A DNA stretch of 64,000 bases from Escherichia coli (GCF_003991155.1 NZ_CP031293.1); one strand, 5' to 3'; numbered from the stretch's first letter, positions 39,066-39,720 are shown. Notes: a model not told the origin generated them from the sequence alone. Numbers and translations: made by a program.

Positions 39066-39332
39066 ATGGACATTAACAACAAAGCCCGCATTCATTGGGC
39101 ATGCCGCCGTGGTATGCGCGAACTCGATATTTCAATCATGCCGTTTTTCGAACATGAGTACGACAGCTTAAGCGATGACGAAAAACGCATCTTTATTCGT
39201 CTGCTGGAGTGTGACGATCCCGATCTGTTTAACTGGCTGATGAACCACGGTAAACCGGCCGATGCAGAACTGGAAATGATGGTCCGACTCATCCAGACAC
39301 GGAACCGGGAACGTGGTCCTGTGGCAATCTGA
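39066..39332 (+). CDS. sdhE: FAD assembly factor SdhE (YgfY / CptB), 88 aa
   Basis: ORF 39066..39332; conserved RGMRELD motif. Confidence 0.92.
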
Positions 39333-39720
39333 TCTGCGCGTCTCCTGGCGCGCACAGTGGCTTTCCTTGCTGATCCACGGGCTGGTTGCCGCTGTTATTT
39401 TACTCATGCCCTGGCCGCTCAGTTACACCCCGTTATGGATGGTGTTACTTTCGCTGGTGGTGTTTGATTGCGTTCGCAGCCAGCGGCGCATTAATGCTCG
39501 CCAGGGGGAAATTCGCCTGTTGATGGACGGGCGTTTGCGCTGGCAAGGGCAGGAGTGGAGCATCGTCAAAGCGCCGTGGATGATTAAGAGCGGCATGATG
39601 CTGCGTTTACGTTCTGACAGCGGTAAACGGCAACATTTATGGCTGGCAGCCGACAGCATGGACGAAGCCGAATGGCGGGATTTACGGCGGATATTGTTGC
39701 AACAAGAGACGCAAAGATAA
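39313..39720 (+). CDS. ygfX: Inner-membrane protein YgfX (CptA), 135 aa
   Basis: ORF 39313..39720; start overlaps the end of sdhE; two predicted TM helices. Confidence 0.88.

Follow-up and report, generated by a model that had tools for sequence, protein, structure and literature searches.

The sdhE-ygfX (cptB-cptA) pair of Escherichia coli is best explained as a housekeeping operon in which ygfX starts inside sdhE, is probably coupled to it in translation, and encodes an inner-membrane, PH-like protein that serves as a partner of SdhE at the membrane, not as a dedicated toxin; we put the probability of this reading at roughly 65%. That the locus is a housekeeping one, as opposed to a mobile toxin-antitoxin (TA) module, is suggested by its being core, single-copy and syntenic, by the purifying selection acting on it, by its lack of a match among the PADLOC models and by its occasional presence in an sdh gene cluster. 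The preliminary description of this DNA had called the pair TA-like and its role debated, which is a faithful account of a conflicting literature (Masuda 2012; PMC3985639; PMC8621075; PMC8132199). The comparative data refine that picture towards a housekeeping operon and away from a true TA module.

Within the window (the whole 64,000-nucleotide stretch of E. coli DNA that was analysed), a six-frame ORF list places the two genes on the plus strand, sdhE opening with ATG and ygfX with GTG, between a divergent and a convergent neighbor:

37843..38823, minus strand: ygfZ, divergent neighbor outside the operon, encoding a folate-binding Fe-S cluster protein
39066..39332, plus strand: sdhE (ygfY/cptB) coding sequence, 88 aa, FAD assembly factor for SdhA/FrdA
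39313..39720, plus strand: ygfX (cptA) coding sequence, 135 aa, GTG start, small inner-membrane protein
39313..39332, plus strand: dual-coding overlap of 20 nt, comprising ygfX codons 1-7 and sdhE codons 83-88 plus the stop codon
39760..40281, minus strand: fldB (flavodoxin 2), convergent downstream neighbor, given for context

Profile searches identify both products. SdhE matches the Pfam family Sdh5 (PF03937) at 5e-26 and 90.8 bits (cut-off 27), as well as the NCBIfam equivalog NF008130 at 198.4 bits (cut-off 120) over residues 1-88 of 88. YgfX matches Cpta_toxin (PF07254, formerly DUF1434) at 1e-49 and 168.5 bits (cut-off 27.3), with residues 2-131 aligning to profile positions 1-132 of 133, and the same family is matched by all 45 aligned YgfX relatives. 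RefSeq annotates both genes at exactly corresponding coordinates with the same 20-nt overlap, flanked by yqfB, trhA, ygfZ (divergent), fldB (convergent), xerD, dsbC and recJ. Several E. coli chromosomes match the 937-nt stretch running from the start of ygfZ to the stop of fldB at 100% identity. Of 5426 complete E. coli genomes, 5425 contain the locus, each as a single copy, and only 194 of these carry it at 99% identity or more to the sequence of the window. Compared with the operon of E. coli K-12 (sdhE, ygfY, b2897; ygfX, b2896), the genes, families, lengths, overlap, GTG codon and neighbors are the same, and we find no substantive difference. The sdhEygfX operon of Serratia sp. ATCC 39006 is an equally close counterpart. 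The locus is, in short, the known sdhE-ygfX pair, a textbook E. coli annotation. The co-oriented 88- and 135-residue products described beforehand are confirmed by the ORF list, Pfam, NCBIfam and RefSeq, and the 20-bp overlap stands to the base in both the ORF coordinates and RefSeq.

The overlap, whose sequence (39313-39332, 20 nt) is GTGGTCCTGTGGCAATCTGA, is read in two frames, that of ygfX being +1 relative to sdhE. Several observations bear on whether ygfX truly begins there. Its reading frame opens only at 39280, and the first start codon within it is the GTG at 39313. Across 45 family members, down to 21-30% identity, the N-terminal pattern MVLWQxxLRxS is kept, with S11 nearly invariant. 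Codons 8-31 are free of stops in 81 loci and show a coding periodicity (conservation by codon position of 0.80, 0.99 and 0.61), and M32, the next methionine, is replaced in 15 of the 81. An AlphaFold model forms residues 2-8 into a β-strand at a pLDDT of about 95. Because of this combination of frame opening, N-terminal conservation, codon periodicity, a variable M32 and a modeled strand, we judge that the GTG start is real, not an artefact of ORF calling. A start at Met32, which would yield a YgfX with one transmembrane segment, was rejected on the same evidence: the N-terminus is conserved, codons 8-31 are periodic and Met32 is not conserved.

To follow the arrangement across species, one genome per species was scanned, giving 80 loci that, together with the reference locus, make 81; all 80 are of Enterobacteriaceae type, a bias that stems from the narrow YgfX alignment used for the scan. 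In all 81, sdhE is 88 codons long, ygfX opens with GTG and the overlap measures 20 nt, so that conservation of the overlap across Enterobacteriaceae, which had been put forward as a check on the pair, is borne out. The neighborhood is equally constant: fldB is convergent in every locus and ygfZ divergent in 79 of 81, the remaining two ending at contig ends, and ygfZ is also divergent in most loci of the distant relatives. Together, ygfZ, sdhE-ygfX and fldB form a conserved neighborhood of redox-cofactor genes.

The overlap itself is better conserved than any other 20-nt window of either gene: among the 79 loci that have a clean sdhE start, 19 of its 20 columns do not vary. Third codon positions are conserved at 0.98-1.0 within it, as against 0.64-0.68 elsewhere, and the sole variable position, a CTG/CAG exchange in ygfX codon 3, is synonymous in sdhE. 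With its length of 20 nt and the GTG codon common to all 81 loci, and only one of its 20 columns variable across 79 species, the overlap lies far beyond what chance would give. As read from the same comparisons, both genes are under strong purifying selection, with dN/dS ratios against E. coli of about 0.024 (sdhE) and 0.077 (ygfX), values that are approximate since dS is near saturation.

Conservation also extends upstream of the overlap, into a stretch that may serve ygfX initiation. The expression-related features that we mapped are as follows:

39025..39030, plus strand: candidate -10 hexamer TACAAT of an sdhE-ygfX promoter, in the conserved block AAAAACACGTTACAAT, with no good -35
39057..39062, plus strand: Shine-Dalgarno sequence AGGAAG of sdhE, anti-SD duplex -4.3 kcal/mol
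39291..39312, plus strand: putative ygfX initiation region within the 3' end of sdhE, with a weak SD-like GGAA/GGGAA
39724..39753, strand unassigned: hairpin in the ygfX-fldB spacer, -17.5 kcal/mol, z = -3.67, a possible terminator

The roughly 21-22 nt that precede the overlap have a mean conservation of 0.98, against 0.76-0.91 elsewhere in sdhE, and the best anti-SD pairing upstream of ygfX reaches -4.3 kcal/mol; such conservation would be expected if initiation signals of ygfX lie within this block. A weak Shine-Dalgarno-like sequence and a GTG codon, both lying within sdhE, imply that ygfX synthesis most likely depends on ribosomes that are translating or terminating on sdhE. From this geometry and its conservation, we infer that ygfX translation is most likely coupled to sdhE translation or termination.

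Upstream of sdhE, the AGGAAG element is a good Shine-Dalgarno sequence; among the aligned Enterobacteriaceae sequences that were displayed, most carry it too. An intergenic alignment of 20 species reveals the conserved block AAAAACACGTTACAAT, with a plausible -10 at 39025-39030, and a strict consensus scan returned no σ70 promoter. The same intergenic region (38824-39065) holds strongly conserved blocks by the ygfZ start, CTAATGGTAAAAGAG and ATTGCAAG, which are probably promoter or leader elements of ygfZ. In Serratia, sdhE and ygfX are co-transcribed, under the control of FlhDC, RsmA and RsmC (PMC5042078). The hairpin that can be drawn over the ygfX start is modest (z = -1.5) and no better than shuffled sequences, and the sequence around the start varies too little for covariation to be assessed. 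Searching the junction and its flanks against Rfam returned only a sub-threshold RT-4 match inside ygfZ (38662-38767, minus strand; 25.4 bits against a gathering threshold of 73.5, E 0.27), which is almost certainly due to chance. Neither a structured RNA nor a member of a known RNA family was found at the sdhE/ygfX junction or around it. Downstream, the convergent ygfX-fldB spacer (39721-39759) spans 39 nt and contains a stable hairpin in Escherichia. In other genera it can fall to 4-10 nt or be absent: it measures 45-112 nt in Citrobacter and Salmonella and only a few nucleotides in Enterobacter and Klebsiella, and in Kluyvera and Cedecea the two genes abut or slightly overlap. A terminator shared by ygfX and fldB is thus not conserved, as the spacer varies in length and vanishes in some genera.

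We next considered what kind of protein ygfX encodes. Hydropathy analysis identifies two hydrophobic segments, at about residues 16-34 and 39-55, and an AlphaFold2 model built from a 45-sequence alignment (mean pLDDT 95.7, pTM 0.79) comprises a strand (residues 2-8), two helices (12-31 and 36-62), six strands within 65-112 and a final helix (118-134). Both lines of evidence agree with the two transmembrane segments ascribed to YgfX beforehand. Projected onto the DNA, the two parts of the protein are:

39346..39498, plus strand: YgfX transmembrane hairpin, model helices 12-31 and 36-62, joined by the short uncharged loop PWPLSYT
39499..39717, plus strand: predicted cytoplasmic β-sandwich and C-terminal helix of YgfX, residues 63-135, PH-like fold in the model

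Lysines and arginines number two in the N-terminus, none in the PWPLSYT loop and four just after the second transmembrane helix, a distribution that suggests an N-in/C-in topology; in this orientation, the β-domain would face the cytoplasm, where SdhE resides. The N-terminal strand (residues 2-8) may join the β-sandwich; PH-like folds are marked by seven strands and a capping C-terminal helix. A membrane pull-down from E. coli recovered the YgfX protein (PMC11997395).

Searches for relatives of the soluble domain gave little. Foldseek comparison of the model against the PDB returned nothing significant, the best weak matches being the tandem PH protein Rtt106, the PH domain of GRK2, and EROS; none of the 45 family members matched the bPH Pfam families at E≤1; and a YgfX profile run against PDB sequences found no solved relative, only chance matches to connexins (E 0.24-0.38). 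Since significant fold matches, bPH matches and solved relatives were all absent from these searches, we describe the modeled soluble domain as PH-like at the level of the fold only and assign it to no known family. YgfX may resemble the membrane-anchored bPH families such as YdbS/YdbT and the Ycf4/EROS-type assembly chaperones, a likeness to which a weak match points and which we take as a lead, not a classification; it differs from these proteins in having no sequence match to the bPH Pfam families.

The association between the two genes reaches beyond Enterobacteriaceae. A phmmer search of 1.84 billion cluster representatives with YgfX yielded just 135 clusters at E ≤ 1e-3, indicating that the PF07254 family is small, and a wider profile search with the YgfX alignment recovered, among the best 120 matches listed, just Enterobacteriaceae and Erwinia. 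Twelve diverse YgfX representatives (50% clusters) were inspected for genomic context. In ten, with YgfX proteins 21-38% identical to that of E. coli, an Sdh5-family gene lies directly upstream and overlaps the ygfX start, by 20, 20, 19, 38, 14, 29, 20, 20, 26 and 23 nt; the relative frame of the two genes is unchanged in all but one of these pairs. Those of the ten whose clusters carry names come from Providencia, Tatumella and Rosenbergiella (YgfX identity 29-38%), and a conserved context is also seen in other Enterobacterales. In Tatumella (L087/L088:3001-3038), the usual GTG is replaced (…GCC CGG TGG…) and another GTG 18 nt upstream produces the 38-nt overlap, the frame relation of sdhE and ygfX being retained despite the shifted start.

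In a JGI metagenome contig (3300032157; L090:1-3447) and in L091, the gene order is sdhA, sdhB, a gene for a MAPEG-family membrane protein, sdhE and ygfX, with a 29-nt overlap and a YgfX about 31% identical to that of E. coli; by this order, the pair is embedded in a succinate dehydrogenase cluster in the L090 lineage. The linkage has exceptions. Two of the 12 distant PF07254 homologues have no adjoining sdhE: in a Ca. Accumulibacter-like sequence (L086:1322-1759), the gene follows a ketoacyl synthase, and in L092 (1136-1579) it has an unannotated gene on one side and bacA/uppP on the other, with convergent overlaps. These two cases indicate that PF07254 is not strictly tied to sdhE outside Enterobacterales-type lineages. 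In Shewanella, the two genes are separated by a 37-bp spacer and do not overlap (PMC8621075).

We also noted that gene callers extend sdhE N-terminally to 99 and 120 aa in two loci (L083:2721-3020 and L095:2664-3026) and that members of YgfX clusters are often annotated as short proteins (87-124 aa) starting at internal codons. Such extended and shortened entries indicate that start annotation of both small genes is inconsistent across databases.

The upstream partner, SdhE, contains the RGxxE motif (R15-G16-M17-R18-E19) that contacts the flavoprotein subunit (PMC8621075), and R14, R15, G16, M17 and E19 are invariant among 33 paired sequences. Among solved structures, its sequence corresponds to E. 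coli YgfY (1x6i) and to SdhE as it occurs in 6c12, an SdhA-SdhE complex, and 6b58, an FrdA-SdhE complex. An E. coli ygfY mutant loses succinate dehydrogenase (SDH) activity and growth on succinate (PMC5293155). SdhE thus shares with the SDHAF2/Sdh5 flavinylation factors both the Sdh5 Pfam match and the invariant RGxxE; what goes beyond that family is the overlapping YgfX partner, here extended to other Enterobacterales and to metagenomic lineages.

Whether the two proteins bind one another has been answered differently in different hosts: an SdhE-YgfX interaction is reported in Serratia (PMC5042078, PMC3985639), and in Shewanella no interaction between YgfX and YgfY was seen, and the ygfY phenotype was not due to SDH (PMC8621075). 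When we modeled SdhE joined to YgfX through a Gly-Ser linker with AlphaFold (33 paired sequences), the parts were confident and their relative placement was not (pTM 0.48), in a calculation constrained by the use of a monomer model, a shallow alignment and a protein, YgfX, that is reported to be multimeric.

These observations can be assembled into a working model. SdhE is the small cytoplasmic factor that aids covalent FAD attachment to SdhA of succinate dehydrogenase and FrdA of fumarate reductase (FRD). YgfX, as modeled, consists of an N-terminal β-strand, a hairpin of two membrane helices and a presumably cytoplasmic, PH-like β-sandwich capped by a C-terminal helix. Its gene starts at a GTG that lies 20 nt short of the sdhE stop codon and follows only a weak Shine-Dalgarno-like sequence. 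Coupling of this kind would tie a low level of YgfX to the output of SdhE. YgfX would then most likely work with SdhE at the membrane, in the maturation or regulation of complex II/FRD; the best-supported guess for the protein places it with SdhE and complex II. The growth and shape defects reported when YgfX is strongly overexpressed would most likely reflect overload with a small membrane protein, or else a secondary activity.

A more specific version of this model is possible, and we offer it tentatively, at less than even odds: YgfX, its translation coupled to that of SdhE, may be not a toxin but a membrane-anchored PH-like adaptor that docks SdhE, or an SdhE-flavoprotein intermediate, at the inner membrane, and either hands flavinylated SdhA/FrdA to the anchor subunits or tunes that step. 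Under this proposal, the cytoskeletal toxicity would be an artefact of overexpression.

The leading alternative, which we consider unlikely, is that CptB/CptA is a genuine type IV TA system, in which membrane-bound YgfX blocks FtsZ/MreB polymerization and SdhE counteracts it, flavinylation being a second and independent function of SdhE. Masuda 2012 is the source to which this claim is traced in PMC3985639 and PMC8621075; as cited there, it reported that YgfX overexpression causes growth arrest, lemon-shaped cells and FtsZ/MreB inhibition, and that YgfY rescues. Acinetobacter cptBA has been studied in E. coli, where CptA is toxic and CptB rescues in a dose-dependent manner (PMC8132199). The architecture also agrees, with the protective gene first, overlapping and co-transcribed as in many TA operons, and the Pfam name Cpta_toxin points the same way, being the only annotation here to carry a toxin label for YgfX. 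Against this alternative, all of the positive evidence comes from strong overexpression, and two other studies did not reproduce the phenotype: Fineran's group detected no TA phenotype, though they did see the protein-protein interaction (PMC3985639), and the Shewanella pair fails every TA criterion tested (PMC8621075). The reported interaction itself contradicts the definition of a type IV system, whose partners do not interact (PMC3985639).

The genomic record argues in the same direction. TA modules are typically accessory, patchily distributed, variable in context and often multi-copy or carried on mobile elements, features that are typical without being strictly defining. Here, the pair is a single-copy core locus in 5425 of 5426 E. 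coli genomes, its synteny is invariant in 81 loci and recurs beyond them with no signature of mobility, one distant pair lies in an sdhAB cluster, and neither SdhE nor YgfX matches any PADLOC defense model at E≤1. In a survey of E. coli, CptA_toxin was one of four 'toxin' groups present at a prevalence of at least 80% across all sequence types studied (PMC10790755), a near-universal distribution that better fits a housekeeping gene.

Comparison with an established type IV system, CbtA/CbeA (YeeV/YeeU), sharpens this distinction. Both are two-gene operons whose second product is reported to be toxic to the cytoskeleton on overexpression. However, CbtA_toxin comprises six groups, whereas CptA_toxin forms a single near-universal one (PMC10790755); the sdhE-ygfX locus is a syntenic, single-copy part of the core genome; YgfX sits in the membrane and has a PH-like domain; and SdhE, the would-be antitoxin, has an independent function in an essential pathway and is reported to interact with YgfX. 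Overall, the evidence leans against the 'toxin-antitoxin' label for sdhE-ygfX.

Less probable still is that the role of YgfX at the membrane has nothing to do with SdhE, SDH or the cytoskeleton, and that the overlap is a frozen accident of genome compaction, doing no more than co-express two genes without a functional tie. The two distant homologues without an sdhE neighbor (Ca. Accumulibacter and L092) and the co-fold that was not confident are compatible with such independence, as is the finding in Serratia that ygfX mutants are affected in prodigiosin transcription and not in swimming motility: deletion of sdhE reduced swimming motility there, and deletion of ygfX had no discernible effect (PMC5042078). 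Yet linkage and overlap persist at 21-38% YgfX identity, where an accident would be expected to have been lost or resized more often, and the reported SdhE-YgfX interaction (PMC5042078, PMC3985639), together with the pair adjoining sdhAB, argues against such independence.

Finally, the idea that a programmed +1 frameshift takes place in the overlap and yields an SdhE-YgfX fusion, to which a few 207-217-aa proteins with both Pfam domains in metagenome-derived sets lend some color, is highly improbable and was rejected, because the fusion junctions differ from one another and fall in clusters of one or two members, all 81 genome loci hold two separate ORFs and the overlap has neither a slippery motif nor a rare-codon pause. 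Rare proteins of 166-217 aa that combine Sdh5 and Cpta_toxin do occur in metagenome and Logan data (P0003, P0004, P0006, P0007, P0009, P0013, P0012 and P0021), with junctions that lie in some cases within the overlap and in others far upstream; this pattern points to sporadic 1-nt indels or to errors in assembly.

The reading of sdhE-ygfX as a housekeeping operon has consequences for how the family is treated. TA censuses, PMC10790755 and TASmania for example, routinely list YgfX/CptA among the toxins, whereas in its genomic behavior it resembles a housekeeping partner of a factor that assembles a respiratory complex, and the comparative data make the question of its physiological role slightly more pointed. 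Should the adaptor proposal prove true, bacteria would possess, in YgfX, a complex II assembly factor for which no eukaryotic counterpart has been described. More generally, if YgfX acts in complex II/FRD maturation, the TA label ought to be abandoned, and a step that is missing on the membrane side of bacterial SDH assembly could be put to the test.
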